A stretch of DNA of 64,000 bases, taken from positions 78,223 to 142,222 of the forward strand of contig CAVXDX010000004.1 of NCBI GenBank assembly GCA_963760615.1, in the 5' to 3' direction. Under the pieces are notes generated by a model, which did no database searches, was not told where the DNA came from, and was given only the letters and a program-made list of their open reading frames with translations. The position numbers and the translations under genes were made by a program. This DNA is from an uncultured Candidatus Micrarchaeota archaeon (GTDB lineage: Archaea; Micrarchaeota; Micrarchaeia; Burarchaeales; Fermentimicrarchaeaceae). Below, piece after piece: positions 45,472-54,680 of this stretch. Within the stretch, counting starts at the first letter, position 1. Each line of letters opens with the position of its first letter.

Positions 45472-47235
45472 CTACAGCACCTTGCTCAGAGGAAGGTTGC
45501 TCTCGGCAGCCTTAATCACAACATCTGGGTTCTTGTAGTACAACCCAATAACCGCACCTACATCATCAACAGACCTTATCCCATTCTTCTTCATCCAGTC
45601 CAGCAACTTCATTTTTTCCTCAATGTCCTTCTTTATTTCACCAGAGCTCATTCCTGTATGGAGGTTCAAGTCCTCAAGGACTCTTGAGCTCTCATTCACC
45701 TTTTCGAAGGAATCTGTCCTGGGCTTCCATTTGAAGAGAGTGTTCAGCGTGACAGCCTCGACAGATGATACAACCAGCTCGCTTATCTCATACACCCTCC
45801 TTATCTCTTTCCTTCTGTCCCTGTACTGAACCACTATGAGCTGCAGCGACTCCAGCTCCGTCATGGGCAGCTCTATTGGAGGGTGAGTGAGCCTCCTGAG
45901 CACCTGCGAAGCAGTATCCGCGTGCATTGTCGAATACACAGCATGGCCAGTGTGCATTGCCTCAAACAGAACTTCGGCCTCCCTCCGTCTCCTTATCTCC
46001 CCAACAACTATCCTGTCGGGCCTCATCCTCAGCGAAGTCATCATGAGGTCAAGCATCCTAACCTGCCCCTTTCCTTCAGGGTTGGGGTTCCTTGTGGTGA
46101 GCGGCACCCAGTTCCACTTGAGGTATGCTGGCAGCGCCAGCTCCCGTGTGTCCTCTATGGTAACCGTCCTGTTGCTGGGCGGTATGAGCGCGCACAGGGT
46201 GTTCAAGGTACTTGTCTTTCCTGAAGCAGTGCCTCCAGCAACAAGTATGTTTATCTCGTATTGCATGCACAGCCAAAGAAAAGCAGCCATCTCCTCAGAC
46301 AGTGTATTCATCTTCTCGCCGATGAAGTCAACAAGCGTCCAGGGGTTTCTTGAGAACCTTCTTATAGTTATGGTATTACCGGAACTTGAGATTGGAAAAA
46401 GCGTCGCGTTAGCCCTGTCGCCTGTCGGAAGGTGGGCGTCAAGTATCGGTGCGAGCAGTGTTATCTCCCTCCCTGCCTTTCTCCCAATCTGCGAGGCGTA
46501 GTTGTATATATCCTCCTCGGATTCCAGATGCAGGTTGGTTTTCATCCACCCCAGCTTCCTGTGGTATACTGAAATGGGCTCCGAGGAGCCGTTCACTGCA
46601 ACTTCCTCAAGCCAGTCATCAGACATGAGTATTTCTATGTCGCCAAGCCCGTACATCCTGTTGAGCAGAATCCCCGCAAGCAGCTTCCTCTTCTCCTCAT
46701 CTGCTTCAGGCAACTCCTCGGTGAGCCTGCTCATGGCTGCGTTATAGAATTTATCCCTAACCTCCCCGAACTTCCTCACATCGCTTATCTCCTCACTCTG
46801 AACTGTTATAATTCTCGCAAGCTCATCCCTCAGATAATCCATGAAAAGTTTGGTGTAAGGACCCAGTACAGGAAGCGTTAGCACATATACGGGTCTGCTC
46901 TCTCCCCTGACGTCCATAATTGTGATAAGGGATTTGATGTTGTTTGTCTCTATATTGTAGGTTTCTATCACCTTTCCCTCCTGCAGCAGGCTCTGCTCCG
47001 CCTCCAGTTTCTTCTTAAGCTTAAGATGGGGCCTCTGCATGATGTTAAGGGGGTATATAACTTCGATAATCCCCTTCTCCTGCAGTATCTTGCCTACCTT
47101 CTCAACCTTGGTCTGCTCAACGCCAACCTTGTTGGCCAGGAAGGGGATCTCTGCCATCTGGTCCTTCTCGGAAGCCAGCGCATCGCATATCTCATCGACT
47201 TTTGTTGAAATTACAGTGGAATTTGCCTCTGTCAT
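45472..47235 (-). CDS. Type IV pilus assembly ATPase (TadA/VirB11/ArlI family) with N-terminal extension
   Basis: AGGTASGKTSTL, TIEDTREL, LRMRPDRIVVGEIR, MHTGHAVYSTMHA. Confidence 0.95.
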   Translation of the reverse strand: MTEANSTVISTKVDEICDALASEKDQMAEIPFLANKVGVEQTKVEKVGKILQEKGIIEVIYPLNIMQRPHLKLKKKLEAEQSLLQEGKVIETYNIETNNIKSLITIMDVRGESRPVYVLTLPVLGPYTKLFMDYLRDELARIITVQSEEISDVRKFGEVRDKFYNAAMSRLTEELPEADEEKRKLLAGILLNRMYGLGDIEILMSDDWLEEVAVNGSSEPISVYHRKLGWMKTNLHLESEEDIYNYASQIGRKAGREITLLAPILDAHLPTGDRANATLFPISSSGNTITIRRFSRNPWTLVDFIGEKMNTLSEEMAAFLWLCMQYEINILVAGGTASGKTSTLNTLCALIPPSNRTVTIEDTRELALPAYLKWNWVPLTTRNPNPEGKGQVRMLDLMMTSLRMRPDRIVVGEIRRRREAEVLFEAMHTGHAVYSTMHADTASQVLRRLTHPPIELPMTELESLQLIVVQYRDRRKEIRRVYEISELVVSSVEAVTLNTLFKWKPRTDSFEKVNESSRVLEDLNLHTGMSSGEIKKDIEEKMKLLDWMKKNGIRSVDDVGAVIGLYYKNPDVVIKAAESNLPLSKVL

Positions 47236-47412
47236 AAGTAAGAATTTTCCTTACTCAATATAAAAAGGTATTGCCTAACTCCTGCTTTCGGTTAGGAATA
47301 ACAAAAAGTGGCCTAATACCGCAAGTTTTAAAAACAAAACTAGCTCAAAATAGACGTAGCGACCAGGAATACATTGAAATAGTCCATGTAGCTGGTCCCA
47401 TAAGGGATAGAG

Positions 47413-50202
47413 ATGGCCAGCTTTAGAGGGAAAAAGGGATTCATACATTTATTGTTAGAGTACTCTTTTGGAATCCTCCTTATTCTATCAGCTGCATACA
47501 TGGCCGAATCGCTGCTTTCCAACCCCAATAAGCCGTTAGAACGCATTCTGCTGCTGGACTCTGCAAATGGTGTAAGCGATAACTCCACACCTCCTGAAAA
47601 CTCATCTCAGACTAATATGACAGACAACAGCACCAATGCCACAGTTGCAAATGGCAACTTTACAGAAAACCCATCCGAAAACAATACCAATGCAACCGCT
47701 CCGGAGATCCCCGCTAATGTAACTAATCAAACAGAACTGCCCCCCGAACAGAACGCCACGGAAAACATAACAGAGAACAACACCAATCCTCTAATTCCGC
47801 TCTCTGCCATCAATAAGACCACTTCAGAAAATACGGGCAATGTGGAAAACATAACCTACACGCGACCTTCAAACTTAATTAAGGGAGAAATTGTAAAGTA
47901 TACCCCTACTTCAGAAACGCATTGTATCAAGGGTACCTGTGTGGCTACACTATATCCTACGCGAAATTTCATTCAGGATAGGCTTGGAAAATGGAAACGC
48001 TTAGGAGAAATTACGAATATAACCTACTCCAATAACCTACTCAACATCTCTTGGAATACGAGGAGCATCCTCCTTCAGCCGTATATCCGATATAATGGAA
48101 GCTATACAGAACAATTACCCTCAGAGTATAACTTCTCAATTTCGTATACTAATTTTATAGATTATATAGAATTCAAGCCAAGAATCAAATTTGTTGATGG
48201 ATTGACGGAGTTTGGCTTCAAGAAAGTAAGCTGGTCCAATGATGAAGTTGTAATTAATTTTGACGATTTGGCTGCGAATAATTTTGAAGTAACCCAGAAC
48301 GAAACTCACATTTCTATACGAAATCTGGAGGGGAGAGTAAGCTCTAATGAGATGCTTGAATTGGATCCCACAATCACTCTCAATGAGTCAAACAGCGGGA
48401 ATGTGGGCGACTCATTCACAAACAGCTCGGATACAGGAGTTAATTACGGAACTCTCTTGAACCTGAGCGTAAGGAGTTACACCTCAGGTGATGTCCGCAG
48501 GGTTTTCTTGCTCTTCAATCTTAGTGTTATACCTTCAAGCGCAACAATAACGGATGCAAATCTATCGTTGTACATGTTTGTTGCTCCAAGTAACAGCAGA
48601 ACCTATAGTGCTTATAACACATCAAACAGCTGGACTGAAACCGGGATAACGCAGAGCAACCAACCCGCAGCAGATACGCTGCAGCAAGGAGTGACCGTTA
48701 CCACCCCTGCCAGTGTTTGGAAGAGTTGGAATGTTACTAATGCGGCAGTTTCAAGCTACGCGCAGACAAACAAAAATATGAGCATAATGATAAGGGATAA
48801 TACTGAAACTGCCACTACTGCGAGATTTGCTCTGTTTGTTTCAAAGGAAAACACAACAGATACATCCAAGAGACCGCAACTTATCATTACATATGTGACA
48901 CCACCAACGTATTCCGACAATTCCACCAGTTCAACTTTGGCAAATACTAATGTGGAGCACAGGCTCAAATGGCAGAGCGAAACAGGATTAAGCGGTTATA
49001 TCTTCAGTTTCTGCAATGGAACCTACCAAAAAGCTACCATAACTCTGAATCCGACAACAACCTACACATTCCTGGACAACACGAGCAACAACGCATACTG
49101 GGCGTCACCTGTAAATCCTATCACCTCGCCAGCAGGAGGAACAGAGGCGACTGCGGTTCAATATACAAATATGAGTTTAAACGACTCCTCATTCGCAAGG
49201 GTGTTAGGTGATGCGACAAACAACGATGACCCATACTGGAGCATGAACTTCACGATAAACGAAACTACAGCAAGCATAAACTGGATTAATGTCAGTCTTG
49301 GAGGTTTCAAAGTCCTTACTGGTGGTTCTGAAGCGGCAACCTGCTATGTGTTCAACTGGACTTCTGTGACTTGGCTTTCAATTTCAACTTTGGGGACTAC
49401 CCCCACAATAATTTCAAGCAACTACACCGCAGGAATTGGCGATATAGTAAATGCAAGCACTAAGGTATTGAATGTTTATTGCACAGGAGCACAGTTTGAT
49501 TTGAATGAAGGTATCTATCTTGACTTCGTAAGTGTGGTGGTGAACAGCAGCAACACAACCTATTCGACTGCCAATTGCAGTGATGCCAATGCGGTGCTTA
49601 CAAATGACTCGTGGGTCGCTATGACCGGAACCTTGGACTGGTCGAATGTCACCAAACTGATTACCTCAACCGAAGAGGCAACAGTCAAATGGTGTGTGTA
49701 TGCAAACAATACCGGTGGTGCTTGGAATTCCACGTCCTGCTCCAATCCGTTTGTTTACCTAACGACAGCACAGGTGGTGGGTTTCACGATAACTCTTCCA
49801 GGGCAGAATCCCGTCGATGCAGCAGAGGAAGGGAATGCAACCGCAGATATAGAGTTCAACCTTACAGGTGGCAACACTGCAAGCAACGTTGCTCCATGCA
49901 TTGCTGCAACTTCAACATGCCAGACAAGCGGCACACCCATTTTTGTATTTACCAATACTGGAACTGCAACTCTGAGCTGGTATGTTTATCTTGATACTAA
50001 TATGCCAGCAAGCATGACTCTGAAAGGAAAGACGAATAATGACCCTGCGGGAGCTACGACCATAACAACAACTGGATGGCTTGTTGCAAGCTCAATCGCT
50101 CCCAGCAATTCGCAGAATGCATGGCTGTGGACGGATTTCACTGGTGCAAAGGTAAGTGATGCTACAAGCAGAACCTTAAAAAACAATGCAACTTCAACGT
50201 GA
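47413..50202 (+). CDS. Large surface adhesin-like protein: sequon-rich linker, DNRLRE-like domain, Ig domain with an inserted beta-sandwich, C-terminal fibre-subunit-like domain
   Basis: N-terminal TM/signal; LELDPTITL, DSFTNSS...NYG...RRVFLLFNLS...ANLSLY...W...GIT...SKE...RPQLIITY; C-terminal 140 aa paralogous to the 50303 protein. Confidence 0.75.
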   Translation: MASFRGKKGFIHLLLEYSFGILLILSAAYMAESLLSNPNKPLERILLLDSANGVSDNSTPPENSSQTNMTDNSTNATVANGNFTENPSENNTNATAPEIPANVTNQTELPPEQNATENITENNTNPLIPLSAINKTTSENTGNVENITYTRPSNLIKGEIVKYTPTSETHCIKGTCVATLYPTRNFIQDRLGKWKRLGEITNITYSNNLLNISWNTRSILLQPYIRYNGSYTEQLPSEYNFSISYTNFIDYIEFKPRIKFVDGLTEFGFKKVSWSNDEVVINFDDLAANNFEVTQNETHISIRNLEGRVSSNEMLELDPTITLNESNSGNVGDSFTNSSDTGVNYGTLLNLSVRSYTSGDVRRVFLLFNLSVIPSSATITDANLSLYMFVAPSNSRTYSAYNTSNSWTETGITQSNQPAADTLQQGVTVTTPASVWKSWNVTNAAVSSYAQTNKNMSIMIRDNTETATTARFALFVSKENTTDTSKRPQLIITYVTPPTYSDNSTSSTLANTNVEHRLKWQSETGLSGYIFSFCNGTYQKATITLNPTTTYTFLDNTSNNAYWASPVNPITSPAGGTEATAVQYTNMSLNDSSFARVLGDATNNDDPYWSMNFTINETTASINWINVSLGGFKVLTGGSEAATCYVFNWTSVTWLSISTLGTTPTIISSNYTAGIGDIVNASTKVLNVYCTGAQFDLNEGIYLDFVSVVVNSSNTTYSTANCSDANAVLTNDSWVAMTGTLDWSNVTKLITSTEEATVKWCVYANNTGGAWNSTSCSNPFVYLTTAQVVGFTITLPGQNPVDAAEEGNATADIEFNLTGGNTASNVAPCIAATSTCQTSGTPIFVFTNTGTATLSWYVYLDTNMPASMTLKGKTNNDPAGATTITTTGWLVASSIAPSNSQNAWLWTDFTGAKVSDATSRTLKNNATST

Positions 50203-50266
50203 TGTTATGAAAAAGAAAACTGAATTTAATGCTGAGAACGGAGAAATCCGTCTCAATTGTTTAATA

Positions 50267-50297
50267 TTTAAACGCCTAACGGCGTCCGTGAGGTGGT
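50267..50297 (+). promoter_or_regulatory. TATA-like box and Shine-Dalgarno for the 50303 gene
   Basis: TTTAAA at 50267-50272; GAGGTGGT at 50290-50297, 5 nt before the ATG. Confidence 0.5.
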
Positions 50298-50302
50298 AAA
50301 AA

Positions 50303-50842
50303 ATGAATCTGTGGAGAAAAACCATTTTGACAGCAACTGTTTTGGCAGTGCTGTCTTCGGTTATATACGCAGCAGCATACACAACAACCCTGACGTACTT
50401 CAACATAGCAACCGTGGAGTCATTCACAGTGACTCTCCCAGGCGAAAGTGCCGTTCCTGCAACAGGTGGCGGTGCAGCAACACACGACATAGAATTCAAT
50501 GCAAGCAGCGGAACGATTACTTGTGTAGACCCATGCATAACTGGAGGAGGGACCTGCCAATCAAGCCCAACACCCATATTCGTAGTACAAAACACAGGCA
50601 CAGTTAACCTCAACATCTCCGCGAAGTTCACAGTATCCCCGCCATCGTGCGTGAAGGTTGGGGGAGCTACAACTTACGCTGGAGCATGTGCAGGCTCAAC
50701 AATAGACACCAGCTACGTGACAGTGCAGAACAATCTTGCACCAGCAGGGTCGGTAAACTGGTACGAGCAGGCAAACTTCACGTCATGCACGTCAGCAGAC
50801 ACTACAAGCAAGACGCAGTGGGTGTACGGAGTGACCAGCTGA
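50303..50842 (+). CDS. Small secreted beta-protein, candidate fibre (TasA/bundling-pilus-like) subunit
   Basis: Sec-type signal; FTVTLPG...DIEFN...C...CQ...PIFVVQNTGTVNL; 6 Cys. Confidence 0.6.
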   Translation: MNLWRKTILTATVLAVLSSVIYAAAYTTTLTYFNIATVESFTVTLPGESAVPATGGGAATHDIEFNASSGTITCVDPCITGGGTCQSSPTPIFVVQNTGTVNLNISAKFTVSPPSCVKVGGATTYAGACAGSTIDTSYVTVQNNLAPAGSVNWYEQANFTSCTSADTTSKTQWVYGVTS

Positions 50843-50852
50843 AGAGAATACC

Positions 50853-50870
50853 TTTCTTTTTGTTTTTTTT
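50853..50870 (+). terminator. Archaeal oligo-T terminator candidate
   Basis: TTTCTTTTTGTTTTTTTT about 10 nt after the stop of 50303..50842. Confidence 0.6.
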
Positions 50871-50895
50871 GGTATTGAAGAAAGAGGTGTAGGAG

Positions 50896-51057
50896 ATGAG
50901 GCAGATTGCAATAGTATTGGAAACAGCACGGGGAGACATAGATACCCTCACCTGCGAGATAAAGACAAAGGTGAATGAGCTGGGCAATGTCGAGTGGGTG
51001 GGGTATCATGTGAAAAAACTGAGAAATGAAAAATTTGAAAAAAACTTTAGAAGGTGA
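50896..51057 (+). CDS. Small hypothetical protein (53 aa), below the ORF-track cutoff
   Basis: MRQIAIVLETARGDIDTLTCEIKTKVNELGNVEWVGYHVKKLRNEKFEKNFRR; preceded by GAGGTG...GGAG; stop overlaps the next gene's RBS. Confidence 0.5.
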   Translation: MRQIAIVLETARGDIDTLTCEIKTKVNELGNVEWVGYHVKKLRNEKFEKNFRR

Positions 51058-51062
51058 GATTG

Positions 51063-52184
51063 ATGGAAAAGGAAAAAGCTAGGCGGCATCTCTGGTTCAT
51101 CCCCCTGGTGGCTATTGCTTTAATAGCCGTGCTCGTAGTGGGATGTTTCTCTTCGAACCAGACTCCGAGCGGAGGGAATCAAACCCCCCCCCCAAATGAG
51201 AATGCGACAAAACCGGCAGAACAGAACGCAACTCAATTTGTTGAACCGAAGGTATACTCTCCTTACTACGCCGGGCTGGAGAGCATTGTAAACGCAGAGT
51301 TGAATAAGACTTCGGCCAATGCCACAAGAGGAGACTACCTCCCAACAACGATGTTCAGAGAGCTGCCAGACTTCCCGAAAGACTTGTACCAGATGCAGGT
51401 CCTCTTCAAGTACTACCAGATGGGGAAGATAAGGAACCAGACGGACACCACTAAAAAGGAGATAGGGCCCGAGTACTGGAAGCAGCCTGAGTGGATCCCT
51501 ACTTTCTCCACAAACGGTTTGAAAATGATTCAAAACCCACCCCTGGATACATACTACTACGGCTGGGCGGACTATGAACTCACAGGCGCAAACCAGATGA
51601 GGAACAAGAATACGGGTGCAATAACCACATTCAACCCAGGTGTGGTTGCAACAGTGCTCCCAAACAAAACCATCGAGGTGAAGGTTCCCAGAATTGGGGT
51701 GGAGGGCTACACAGTCTACCCATCAGATATGGTGATAGTGGATGCGCACCCAGACACAATATTTGACGTCTACACAGTCCTATACTCCGGATGGTATGTA
51801 CAGCTATACCAGGGTGTGAAGCTAAACGCAACATTCCCAGATTCTGGTGCAATCGAGGATTTCCAGATATTCCCAGACGGAACCAAGACGGTGAATCAAA
51901 ACCCAAGCGAGGTGCAGAAATACTTCAATGTTGAGTTCGAACCGGACCAGTTTGCCATAGAACCGAGCTTCCCAGTCTTCAAGGATGGTTGGGCCAAGCT
52001 CATAAGGATGAGAATCACAGTCAACGAAAGCACACCAAAGGGCAAATATCTGATTGGAATGGACATAGTGCCGCCTTCCAAGGAGTTCAATGATGACATG
52101 GTATGGAAATACAAGACAGAGTACCGAGTCGGAGGGATGGGCATAGGAAGGCCATTCTTCAGAGTTTTTGTGCAAGTGGTTTAA
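51063..52184 (+). CDS. Putative lipoprotein of unknown function
   Basis: Basic N-terminus, hydrophobic stretch and lipobox-like VLVVGC; Pro/Asn linker; C-terminal Ig-like TVNESTPKGKYLIG. Confidence 0.65.
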   Translation: MEKEKARRHLWFIPLVAIALIAVLVVGCFSSNQTPSGGNQTPPPNENATKPAEQNATQFVEPKVYSPYYAGLESIVNAELNKTSANATRGDYLPTTMFRELPDFPKDLYQMQVLFKYYQMGKIRNQTDTTKKEIGPEYWKQPEWIPTFSTNGLKMIQNPPLDTYYYGWADYELTGANQMRNKNTGAITTFNPGVVATVLPNKTIEVKVPRIGVEGYTVYPSDMVIVDAHPDTIFDVYTVLYSGWYVQLYQGVKLNATFPDSGAIEDFQIFPDGTKTVNQNPSEVQKYFNVEFEPDQFAIEPSFPVFKDGWAKLIRMRITVNESTPKGKYLIGMDIVPPSKEFNDDMVWKYKTEYRVGGMGIGRPFFRVFVQVV

Positions 52185-52200
52185 AAAATAAGATGAGCGC

Positions 52201-53883
52201 ATGAGACCGAGGATTGAGATAGCAATCCTCTTTTCTTCATTTTTGCTACTTTTGGCCATACCCATATGCGGCGAGGGATATACCTCAACCCAGACCTACG
52301 TGGCTATTGCAGAGCCCAGAGTTGAGGTGCGGAATTTAGTGCTGAGCTCCTACTCGGTTTACCAAGGCAGCTCGATTGATTTTTCAGTGAGCCTGCGGAA
52401 CTTTGGAACTGCTTCCACAATAGCTACCTCTGAAATCAAGATATACGACGCCTCGAACACTGTTGTTGGAACCATATCCTATGATGCTGTCACGTTATAC
52501 CCGGGTCAGATGGCAACGATTCAAAAAACTTGGAGTACAGGCGCTCTGCCAATTGGAGCTTACCGTGCTGTTGCGCAGGCAAGCTATGAATCAAACCTCT
52601 CAAACACAGTTGAGAAGAATTTCTCAATAGCAATACAGCCAGCCGCTGCGCCGAATCAACCAACGCCGGTGTTTCCCATCATTATACCCCCCGCAATAAC
52701 TCCCATTACTGGGAAAGCTGTCTTTCTGAAGACGACTGTTCTGAAAGAGCTCCTCGCAGGACAAGGCGGCGTGAACAGCTTATTGCTGAAGAATGTAGGG
52801 GAAAGCATACTCAACATCACCCTCAGCTTAGGGGGCATCCCCAAGGAATGGGTCGTTCTGCCTTCAGATAAAACTCTAATCCTACCAAATGAGACAAGAA
52901 TAATAGACCTTGGGCTATCACTACCTAAGGACATACCGGCTGGTGACTATCTTGTTAAAATTGATGCCACTGGCGGGGCAAATTCAACAGATTTCCTTGC
53001 GTTGAGGGTTAAGAGTTATCCCACAGATTATGACCAGCCAATTGCGCTTAAGACAATAAGCATCGATGAGGCTCTGAAAGAGACGATTGTTTCCATTGAT
53101 GTTAGGAATCCATCGAATGACATAATGGATGTCGTCCAGCTGCAGGAGAGAATTCCATACTCCGTCAACGATGAACAGATTGAATTTCTGGATAAACAGG
53201 GCAAAATCATCACAGTCAACGGAGAGAAGACGATACTATGGGAGTTTACAAATGTCCATCCCCAGGAAACATTCCACATATCCTACAACATAAAAAACTT
53301 CCTCACTGATTACTCCACCTACATGAATTGGCATGTCTCACAGATTCTTGTAACCTCAAAACAGAGTACTGCAGATCTGGTGAAAATACTTGAACTAACC
53401 TCAACAAGCATAAACGGGAGTGGTAGCGGGGAAGTTAGCGCATCGGTGCTTTATGTTGGAAATGATCCTGCGGATGTTACAATACTTCTTGAGGTCCCAG
53501 AGGGTTTCACCGTTGAGCCAACTACAATCACCAGAACACTCATACCAAAAGCTGTTGCATCGGTTGATTTCAAGCTTAGCACTTCCAAAATTGAGCATGA
53601 CACCTACACGGTGCGACTTTTTGTGATTGGCAAAGACTTCAGCACTTATATGACAACTCCAGTTCTAGTAAGCAGAGAAGTTACCCAGCCTTCATTCTCA
53701 ATTCTCTCGATTTTAAGCCTGGAGCAGATTGTTGGAGTTTCGGCATTCATGGCAACGGCAGTTACTATCTCAATTCTCTCCTACAGAAGAATTAGGGGGG
53801 GACCCAAGCCGGCGTATAGCCAAGAGAGGCTTGACTACATGAGAAACATTAAAAAGATGGTTACAAGCAAAAATAATAAGTAA
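52201..53883 (+). CDS. Secreted CARDB/Ig-repeat protein with C-terminal TM anchor
   Basis: VSLRNFGT, LKNVGE...LSLPKDIPAGDYLVKI; C-terminal hydrophobic helix and basic tail. Confidence 0.75.
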   Translation: MRPRIEIAILFSSFLLLLAIPICGEGYTSTQTYVAIAEPRVEVRNLVLSSYSVYQGSSIDFSVSLRNFGTASTIATSEIKIYDASNTVVGTISYDAVTLYPGQMATIQKTWSTGALPIGAYRAVAQASYESNLSNTVEKNFSIAIQPAAAPNQPTPVFPIIIPPAITPITGKAVFLKTTVLKELLAGQGGVNSLLLKNVGESILNITLSLGGIPKEWVVLPSDKTLILPNETRIIDLGLSLPKDIPAGDYLVKIDATGGANSTDFLALRVKSYPTDYDQPIALKTISIDEALKETIVSIDVRNPSNDIMDVVQLQERIPYSVNDEQIEFLDKQGKIITVNGEKTILWEFTNVHPQETFHISYNIKNFLTDYSTYMNWHVSQILVTSKQSTADLVKILELTSTSINGSGSGEVSASVLYVGNDPADVTILLEVPEGFTVEPTTITRTLIPKAVASVDFKLSTSKIEHDTYTVRLFVIGKDFSTYMTTPVLVSREVTQPSFSILSILSLEQIVGVSAFMATAVTISILSYRRIRGGPKPAYSQERLDYMRNIKKMVTSKNNK

Positions 53884-53894
53884 GTGGTGGGCGC

Positions 53895-54680
53895 TTGGAT
53901 AAACAAATTATAGGAATCATATCCGGAAAGGGAGGCGTTGGGAAGAGCACAATAGCCGTGAACCTGGCAACATTATTCGTCGCATCAGATTATAACAACC
54001 TACTTGTGGATTGCGATACCTCCAACCCGAGCGTGGGGCTGCATCTTGGCATATGGCAGCATTCCTACGGGCTGCAGGATGTTCTACTTGGAAAGATAAA
54101 GCCCGAGGAGGCCATAGTGCTCCATCCGGCAACCGGAATAAGGGTAATCCCTTCTTCCCTGAGCTATGAAAAAGAGACGAGCATGAAAAACCTCTCAAAA
54201 GTGCTGGATGGAATGAAGACGTACAACTGCATCACGCTAGACGCCCCCCCAGGCCTGTCGGAAGAAGTTGAGAATATAATGAAAACGTGCAATGAGCTTG
54301 TAGTGGTTACCACGCCGGATGTACCCAGCGTGACCAGTGCCACAAAAATAATAGATCTAGCTGAAACTAATCGGATCCCAGTTGTCGGCTTGGTTGTGAA
54401 CAGAATACTCAACAAAAAATATGAGCTCCACATGCAGGAGATAGAATCATTGTGCAACACAAGGATAATTGCAAAAATACCCGAAGACTCAGGGGTGCCA
54501 GAGAGCATAGCAGTTAAAGTTCCCATCGCCATGTACCGCCCCAAATCCCCGGCAAGCCTTGCAATCAACCGGCTTGCGACAGATCTTTGTGGGAAGAGAA
54601 TCGCCCAACCGCAGTATGCCAACGTAGGAGTTTTCGGGCAGTTCATAAATTTTGTGAAGAGGATTCTGGGAAGGAGCTGA
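53895..54680 (+). CDS. MinD/ParA-family ATPase
   Basis: SGKGGVGKST deviant Walker A, VDCD, DAPPG, VVTTPD, GLVVNR; TTG start. Confidence 0.92.
   Translation: MDKQIIGIISGKGGVGKSTIAVNLATLFVASDYNNLLVDCDTSNPSVGLHLGIWQHSYGLQDVLLGKIKPEEAIVLHPATGIRVIPSSLSYEKETSMKNLSKVLDGMKTYNCITLDAPPGLSEEVENIMKTCNELVVVTTPDVPSVTSATKIIDLAETNRIPVVGLVVNRILNKKYELHMQEIESLCNTRIIAKIPEDSGVPESIAVKVPIAMYRPKSPASLAINRLATDLCGKRIAQPQYANVGVFGQFINFVKRILGRS

Follow-up and report, generated by a model that had tools for sequence, protein, structure and literature searches.

A candidate membrane-anchored donor-strand fibre cassette with a lectin-type tip in Micrarchaeota

We analysed a 64,000-nt stretch of DNA (the window) from an uncultured Candidatus Micrarchaeota archaeon (contig CAVXDX010000004.1, assembly GCA_963760615.1), in which four co-directional plus-strand genes, here called A to D, form a cassette together with a 53-aa open reading frame (ORF) between B and C and a MinD/ParA-type ATPase gene directly after D. 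We consider it probable that this cassette encodes a Sec-dependent, membrane-anchored donor-strand fibre, with A as the tip, B as the shaft, D as the terminator and anchor and C as a candidate chaperone, the MinD-type ATPase having a positioning role. An earlier sequence-only reading had proposed an undescribed donor-strand fibre with an acceptor-only lectin tip, a proposal that is supported and came through both a survey of gene co-conservation and an AlphaFold2 (AF2) model. All four ORFs are present as that reading described them; its list of genes was correct as far as it went, but it overlooked a fifth conserved member, the MinD-like ATPase. The source genome (1.14 Mb in 16 contigs, 91% complete) has Candidatus Fermentimicrarchaeum limneticum Sv326 (Micrarchaeota, DPANN) as its closest named relative.

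In the assembly that we propose, the strand of each B would slot into a groove that the subunit before it offers in its domain. Because A would have the groove without the strand, it could only occupy the distal end, where it would display a variable lectin-type payload (here CBM96/DNRLRE). Conversely, D has the strand without the groove, and would therefore terminate the chain at the proximal end and tie the fibre to the membrane. C would hold or prime subunits, as do ElrE and PamC/D, the membrane-anchored chaperones of two bacterial systems discussed below, while the MinD-like ATPase would act on the cytoplasmic tail of D through a putative contact, positioning or organising the anchors. The likely use of such a fibre is the attachment of a host-dependent cell to other cells or to glycans.

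The shaft and tip candidates and their shared domain

Gene B (50303-50842, plus strand) encodes the candidate shaft subunit, a protein of 179 aa that divides into a Sec signal (residues 1-24, ending ..VIYA), a strand (residues 25-36) and an immunoglobulin (Ig)-like beta-sandwich (about residues 40-179). The donor-type strand, 12 residues long (AYTTTLTYFNIA; 50375-50410, plus strand), forms the N-terminus of the mature protein. As the sequence-only reading had stated, the signal is of the Sec type and not class III, and B shares this with 85 stand-alone relatives, in which, apart from a few fragments, a Sec-type signal is followed by a conserved beta-strand motif. The same reading had credited B with its own promoter, ribosome-binding site and terminator, and putative versions of all three can be read in the DNA. 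A TATA-like box (TTTAATATTTAAA, 50260-50272) and a ribosome-binding site (GAGGTGGT, 50289-50296, 6 nt upstream of the ATG) together span 50260-50296 on the plus strand, and an oligo-T tract that is terminator-like for archaea lies 3' of the stop codon (50853-50872, plus strand).

Sequence comparison does not place B in any described family. The protein has no match in the Pfam and NCBIfam libraries, Pfam searches of 71 diverse B members gave single chance matches and no family, and B profiles built from 16 and 71 sequences found no chain in the PDB below E 0.27. The AF2 model of B has a predicted local distance difference test score (pLDDT) of 79, with residues 40-179 mostly above 80 and residues 20-36 below 50. 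As to a self-complete fold, raised with the original proposal as its counter-case, the model leaves the N-terminal strand unpacked in cis. When this model was compared with the PDB, Foldseek gave no match at E <=0.001 (all E >=0.015). The VIA exhaustive aligner placed CsuA/B first (Z 7.3 over 115 residues, rmsd 3.6 (root-mean-square deviation)), with further weak Z scores for AbpA (7ueg, 6.2), Hyper2 (9bac, 6.0), cannula (9h8b, 5.8) and TasA (8aur, 5.4), and with CupE (5.8), CfaB (5.8) and CooA (5.7) in the same list, in which donor-strand subunits are frequent. The matches to CsuA/B, AbpA, cannula and TasA start past model residue 35-40 (near 39-40 for the AbpA and TasA chains). Two Atlas leads for B, DUF1102 (0.84) and Peptidase_M73 (0.81), fell below the evidence level and were rejected.

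Gene A (47413-50202, plus strand, 929 aa) encodes the tip adhesin candidate. The protein begins with an N-terminal signal or anchor and an N/T/P-rich spacer, continues with a CBM96/DNRLRE lectin-like domain and more beta-rich domains, and ends in a subunit-like domain. The last of these, the putative acceptor domain (residues 782-929; 49756-50199, plus strand), is paralogous to B: residues 782-921 of A align with residues 32-171 of B at 41% identity (BLASTP, E 6e-23), and the domain is recognised by the family profile with E 7.7e-60. It begins ..FTITLPG in A and ..FTVTLPG in B, and no further copy was found in the 1.14-Mb genome. The sequence upstream of the A domain differs in type from that of B: in place of a B-type strand, it reads like the strand with which a different domain ends. 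Residues 331-494 of A (48403-48894, plus strand) form the CBM96/DNRLRE carbohydrate-binding-type domain, with matches to Pfam PF24517 (E 3.1e-23) and NCBIfam NF033679 (E 6.5e-24). The paralogy of the two proteins, the lack of an equivalent of the extra N-terminal strand of B in the A copy and the lectin-type DNRLRE domain on A had all been claimed from the DNA letters, and all hold.

The N-terminus of A (residues 1-31, ..RGKKG↓FIHLLLEY..; 47413-47505, plus strand) may be a signal of the Sec type or one of class III (prepilin-type), the A proteins of sister genera having Sec-type signals. Some distant A-type proteins (P0109, P0123, P0128, P0143, P0149 and P0157) start with clear class III signals of the MKGISS.. 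type. These long proteins hint at hybrids of type IV pilin anchoring with a strand-acceptor module.

A profile made from B homologues and the C-terminus of A was run against 1.84 billion representative proteins, and retrieved 366 at E <=0.001, 177 of them at <=1e-10. Architectures were counted in the 150 best of these 366. The 85 stand-alone proteins in this set are 140-215 aa long, and the remaining 65 are long proteins (230-3529 aa) without a B-type strand, in nearly all of which the domain lies 0-19 residues from the C-terminus and comes right after the end of another domain. The payloads of the long proteins vary and include CBM96/DNRLRE, beta-helix, BNR and LamG domains, so that the domain appears from its placement to be an unvarying C-terminal module for attachment, carried by adhesin-like proteins that otherwise differ. 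The strand consensus of 71 diverse stand-alone members, A↓E-Y-[T/A/V]-T-[T/S]-x-[V/L]-Y-F-N-[V/I], sits right at the signal cleavage site. Its alternate positions hold a small residue, [T/S] (94%), [V/L/I/A], F (88%) and [V/I] (96%), a pattern that reads as an amphipathic beta-strand. By their named records, family members belong to Micrarchaeota (including Norongarragalinales and an Iainarchaeum metagenome-assembled genome (MAG)) and Woesearchaeota. Two cassette contigs, CAZLYC010000003.1 (L061) and CAZNER010000024.1 (L065), are filed as uncultured Methanosarcinales and Candidatus Saccharibacteria MAGs; these are probably mis-binned DPANN contigs and not a sign of a wider range of the cassette.

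A more modest arrangement of the same parts would be a short stalked adhesin, in which D, one or a few copies of B, and A are joined by strand lending, B being an adaptor and not a polymerising shaft. D is itself a long Ig-domain stalk and A-type proteins reach 3529 aa, which would provide reach without a shaft, and the polymerisation of B is our proposal. Furthermore, ElrC of the bacterial Elr system combines donor and acceptor in one protein but failed to polymerise in vitro (bioRxiv 10.64898/2026.10.17.759780). However, B carries strand and acceptor domain in one protein, so that head-to-tail self-association is built in; it has promoter-like and terminator-like signals of its own, and some genomes encode two B paralogues. 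We regard the short tether as unlikely, and retain B as the probable shaft of a donor-strand fibre.

The membrane anchor, the ATPase and the candidate chaperone

Gene D (52201-53883, plus strand, 560 aa), the terminator and anchor candidate, encodes a Sec signal, a B-like N-terminal strand, CARDB/NEW3 Ig domains, a C-terminal transmembrane (TM) helix and a conserved cytoplasmic tail. Among 22 D homologues, NEW3 was found in 20 and WxLIP_HBD in 4, with DUF11 and CARDB occurring too; a D sequence profile found nothing meaningful in the PDB. The mature N-terminal strand of D (GYTSTQTYVAIA; 52276-52311, plus strand) mimics the strand of B. We compared the B and D 12-mers of 19 loci, taken from alignments, by BLOSUM62 scoring with permutation. 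The mean B/D strand score was 21.5 within the same genome, as opposed to 10.4 between different genomes (permutation p <=5e-5), and 21.2 as opposed to 11.1 when near relatives were collapsed to 15 loci. In 13 of the 19 loci the mature N-terminus of D is the best match to the B strand anywhere in D. The two strands also vary together at the aromatic second residue, lineages that lack it in B lacking it in D as well, and the Phe of the D strand is retained in most lineages. Two D homologues contain in-frame stops (G126:C3:52388-54106, one TAG; G142:C5:11593-12804, one TGA and one TAA), and these may be pseudogenes or assembly errors.

Six Woesearchaeota-type loci, with the order A-C-B-X or A-B-C-X, allow a comparison with an unrelated anchor. 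The D profile did not detect the X proteins of these six loci, which range from 192 to 1999 aa and end in a C-terminal TM helix and a basic tail. Despite this, the best match to the B strand sits right after the signal peptide of X, with scores of 20-44 as against 11-19 elsewhere. The same mimicry in an unrelated protein indicates that the combination of a donor-type strand and a membrane anchor, without an acceptor domain, has been kept although the body of the protein is not homologous. More generally, the A-type domain without a strand and the D-type strand without a domain indicate that strand and domain are separable. At one Woesearchaeota locus (L062; 7923-8468 and 9569-11974), the subunit and anchor strands both start with Cys (QC.. 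and TC..), which suggests, from the residues concerned, a lineage-specific disulfide at the start of the strand. A role for D as the chaperone, by comparison with ElrE and the weak WxLIP_HBD matches, was considered and set aside as less likely because of the subunit-like strand at its mature N-terminus, as in the terminators ElrB and PamR.

The C-terminal end of D comprises the TM helix (53728-53784) and the tail that follows it (together 53728-53880, plus strand). Alignment of 20 homologue tails gave the conserved motif ..[YF]-S-x-E-R-L-x-Y-x-x-x-I-K.., in which R543 is invariant. The adjacent ATPase gene (53895-54680, plus strand) belongs to the archaeal MinD family (TIGR01969 minD_arch, E 1e-49), and the C-terminal end of its product (..GVFGQFINFVKRILGRS) looks like an amphipathic helix; in nearly all Micrarchaeota loci such a gene comes immediately after D, and a second MinD-like paralogue, 29% identical, is encoded elsewhere in the genome. 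Both the tail motif and the MinD gene are absent from the Woesearchaeota-type anchors and loci, and it is on the basis of this joint absence that we propose a contact between the D tail and the ATPase.

Gene C (51054-52184, plus strand, 376 aa), the candidate chaperone or assembly factor, starts with an N-terminal TM segment or lipobox, continues through a disordered linker and a helical region, and ends in a PapD-like/ASH-type Ig domain. The hydrophobic segment of the window protein ends in a lipobox-like VVGC. About half of the C homologues have G-C at this position and the others a plain N-terminal TM helix, so that the description of C as a lipoprotein in the sequence-only reading is apt for some lineages but not for those with the plain helix. 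In either form C is, as judged from its N-terminus, membrane-tethered on the outside. Pfam has no match to C, and an alignment of 22 sequences contains 18 invariant columns. The AF2 model (pLDDT 80) opens with an N-terminal helix, passes through a disordered linker into a helical region and closes with a C-terminal Ig sandwich at about residues 215-376. Its fold matches include the Vpr fibril (Z 8.2) and the EcpB chaperone (Z 7.0), as well as FimC, FaeE, CfaA, YadV and SafB; the Ig domains of HYDIN, CEP192 and MSP match the C-terminal domain equally well. Atlas leads to archaeal CARDB and FixG_C Ig clusters (<=0.81) were below the evidence level and were rejected.

The 53-aa ORF in the B-C interval (50896-51057, plus strand) has no signal peptide, and the 53-aa gene that Sv326 has at this position shares 89% identity with it, compared with 63% for B. 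The ORF runs into the GTG annotated as the start of C, an overlap that makes the ATG at 51063 the likelier start of C. In two loci (L043 and L054, in genomes G374 and G332) a second C paralogue lies upstream of B and two tandem MinD-like genes follow D, and the accessory parts thus appear from the gene order to have been duplicated locally.

The co-variation of the B and D motifs would also follow from a common reader, and the motif could be a sorting or processing tag recognised by C or another factor, the cassette then being a surface-display or secretion-maturation system for Ig proteins. Indeed, in B as in D the motif lies directly at the site of signal-peptidase cleavage, and it always co-occurs with C. 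Yet A, which belongs to the same cassette and shares the domain of B, lacks it; the motif alternates like an amphipathic beta-strand ending in Phe, as known donor strands do; and no enzyme fold was detected in the model of C by fold comparison. A sorting tag is, in our estimation, improbable, and we continue to read the motif as a probable donor strand.

Distribution of the cassette and weight of the reading

The census covered a sample of 401 genomes of the phylum; 20 loci were fetched for gene order and further loci added. A B-type domain was found in 23 of the 401 genomes, representing seven families, usually in an arrangement in which the domain closes a long ORF (298-3752 aa) that lies directly upstream of a copy of about 180-210 aa. 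The A-type gene upstream of B was detected in about 16 of 22 loci, while every sampled Micrarchaeota locus with enough DNA keeps the order B-C-D-MinD, the further loci included. Of the 401 genomes, 28 have C, among them all those that are B-positive, and 67 have D-like proteins. Co-conservation of the four genes, on which the sequence-only reading had made its proposal depend, therefore extends over several Micrarchaeota families, and A, B, C and an anchor occur together in the Woesearchaeota-type loci as well.

Several points weigh against a donor-strand fibre. Strand insertion, and the growth of a B polymer past one copy or a few, are deduced from the genes and models through which the system is known here. 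Generic Ig folds (MSP, PapD-like) match B as well as pilins do, and the fold scores of B are within the range of common Ig arrangements, so that the model offers a weak fit and not a proof. In the case of C, the modelled feature that points to a chaperone is a common Ig fold, and C is accordingly a candidate for that role. A prepilin-type signal, if that is what A carries, may tie A to the neighbouring type IV pilus. Finally, some Micrarchaeota families in which neither B nor C was detected have D-MinD pairs too, and D and MinD may have a wider role of their own.

The D-MinD pairs indicate that this two-gene unit is older or wider than the full cassette. It may be an older module that was later joined by the fibre genes, or the partners may have diverged too far to be detected. 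In six loci (L068-L072 and L077, in genomes G208, G109, G258, G369, G021 and G105), a D-like Ig/TM protein is followed by one or two MinD-like genes.

In the window, the cassette lies beside a type IV pilus locus, in which there are pilin-like genes whose products bear class III signals, along with two TadC-like genes and an ATPase gene. The latter (45472-47235, minus strand) is upstream of A and head-to-head with it across a divergent intergenic region of 177 nt (47236-47412). The sequence-only reading had taken the two systems to be co-regulated from this region. The adjacency is indeed present, but its recurrence is confined to the family of the window (L003, L046 and L047), and in Sv326 (CP058998, L003 6501-7664) an IS605 OrfB/TnpB-type gene separates the pilus ATPase from the A-type gene and so interrupts the divergent promoter layout. 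Shared regulation is therefore not a conserved feature, and because of the same restriction we rejected the idea that the cassette and the type IV pilus are functionally tied in a conserved way. It is very improbable that A is a prepilin-type minor pilin and that B, C and D decorate or regulate the pilus: the N-terminus of A resembles the class III signals of the upstream pilins, several distant A-type proteins have clear class III signals, and the genome also encodes a prepilin peptidase (Peptidase_A24), but B, C and D have Sec signals, as do the A proteins of sister genera, and the fetched flanks of most cassettes hold no pilus genes.

Comparison with known systems

The literature searched contained no paper describing the cassette, and cryo-electron tomography work on Micrarchaeota mentions only unidentified thin filaments. 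What is new here is the probable use of the donor-strand principle on an unannotated archaeal family, a full list of candidate parts and a link to MinD without a described counterpart. The contact molecules of host-dependent DPANN archaea are largely unknown, and the cassette is a concrete candidate for host attachment with a complete, testable set of parts: variable lectin-type tip, shaft, anchor, candidate chaperone and positioning ATPase. It ranges over Micrarchaeota, with A-B-C-anchor versions in Woesearchaeota-type genomes. If our proposal is true, chaperone-type donor-strand assembly, shown only in 2026 for Bacillota (Elr) and the Candidate Phyla Radiation (CPR; Pam), would extend to archaea. 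Defining the domain family would in addition improve the annotation of hundreds of metagenomic proteins, including giant adhesins, and the conserved link between a MinD-type ATPase and an anchor tail poses a question of its own about how very small cells are organised. We put forward only tentatively the more specific possibility of a chaperone-guided donor-strand pilus of DPANN archaea whose membrane-spanning terminator has its conserved cytoplasmic tail read by a dedicated MinD-type ATPase, such that the cell interior positions or licenses a Sec-exported fibre outside the cell, with fast-changing lectin tips for keeping hold of hosts. Such a pilus would be the archaeal equivalent of Elr and Pam, with a layer of control from the cytoplasm that is absent from both.

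In chaperone-usher pili, each subunit has an N-terminal extension with which it makes the Ig fold of the adjoining subunit complete, and growth is stopped by a terminator, itself a donor, while the two-domain tip adhesins have a pilin domain without an N-terminal extension. The C-terminal domain of A (residues 782-929) likewise lacks a donor extension, as do those of the 65 long family members; CsuA/B, CupE, CfaB and CooA are among the best, though weak, fold matches of B, and C has PapD-like chaperones among its generic Ig matches. An outer membrane is lacking in archaea. The cassette differs from chaperone-usher pili in having neither usher nor outer membrane, in the lack of any sequence relation and in its anchoring by a TM protein. 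The usher family PF00577 gave no match at E <=0.01 in the 91% complete window genome, the control being found in E. coli.

The Elr pilus of Enterococcus faecalis belongs to the WxL system, which according to its paper is confined to Bacillota (bioRxiv 10.64898/2026.10.17.759780). Here ElrD polymerises via an N-terminal donor strand, [S/T]-x-[G/A]-x-[V/I]-x-F, the tip protein ElrA carries a variable payload and is acceptor-only, the terminator ElrB is donor-only and has an LPxTG motif, a TM helix and a basic tail, and ElrE is a membrane-anchored Ig-type chaperone (bioRxiv 10.64898/2026.10.17.759780). The parts correspond nearly one to one, ElrA to A, ElrD to B, ElrB to D and to the Woesearchaeota-type X, and perhaps ElrE to C. 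The strand of B, written as [T/A/V]-x-[T/S]-x-[V/L]-x-F-x-[V/I], resembles the Elr donor strand, both containing Phe; by analogy we see in this a likeness of design and not proof of descent. The archaeal cassette differs in several respects. No LPxTG is visible in the C-terminal 70 residues of D, which ends in a TM helix and a cytoplasmic tail, and with no LPxTG/sortase in the cassette the anchor stays in the membrane. Moreover, C is tethered by its N-terminus, not by its C-terminus, and the MinD-type ATPase and conserved anchor tail have no Elr counterpart. At the level of families, the WxL domain PF13731 had no match in the window genome (the control was found in Lactococcus), nor was DUF916 (PF06030) found there. 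PF11797 (WxLIP_HBD) matches 4 of 22 D homologues with a best E of 2.4e-5, Ig families being prone to cross-hits, and D of the window scores 0.065, below the cut-off. As the WxL, DUF916 and usher families were not found, we do not file the cassette under either WxL or chaperone-usher pili.

The Pam pilus of the CPR, also of the donor-strand kind, is made by an ultrasmall episymbiont that has no outer membrane, and includes membrane-anchored chaperones and a tip pilin (bioRxiv, PMC13278184). The N-terminus of its terminator, PamR, goes into the last pilin, and PamR thereby holds the fibre at the membrane (PMC13278184). Compared by the description in that paper, the archaeal cassette is alike in its membrane-anchored chaperone candidate, its tip and a terminator that would be tethered by an inserted N-terminus. 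Pam differs in being bacterial and in having two-domain pilins that use a linker strand, and no MinD link is reported for it.

Among archaeal appendages, type IV pili are set apart by their signals, B having a Sec-type signal and then a beta-strand in place of a class III signal, and only A being ambiguous. Closer in design are the archaeal threads, AbpA bundling pili, CanA cannulae and Tat-fimbriae, all built from exported subunits, by the Sec or Tat route, with a donor strand at the N-terminus. In fold, B weakly resembles AbpA, CanA and TasA (Z 5.4-6.2), but it has no sequence relation to any solved subunit. The locus of the Sulfolobus threads (Saci_0406) has a putative donor-only cap, Saci_0405 (PMC9715654). 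These archaeal donor-strand fibres are described as chaperone-free or with assembly factors unknown, and without a defined membrane anchor or adhesin tip. The archaeal cassette described here differs in that candidates for all parts are encoded together and, if our proposal holds, it would supply the polarity, anchor and assembly factors that are missing for the known archaeal donor-strand fibres.

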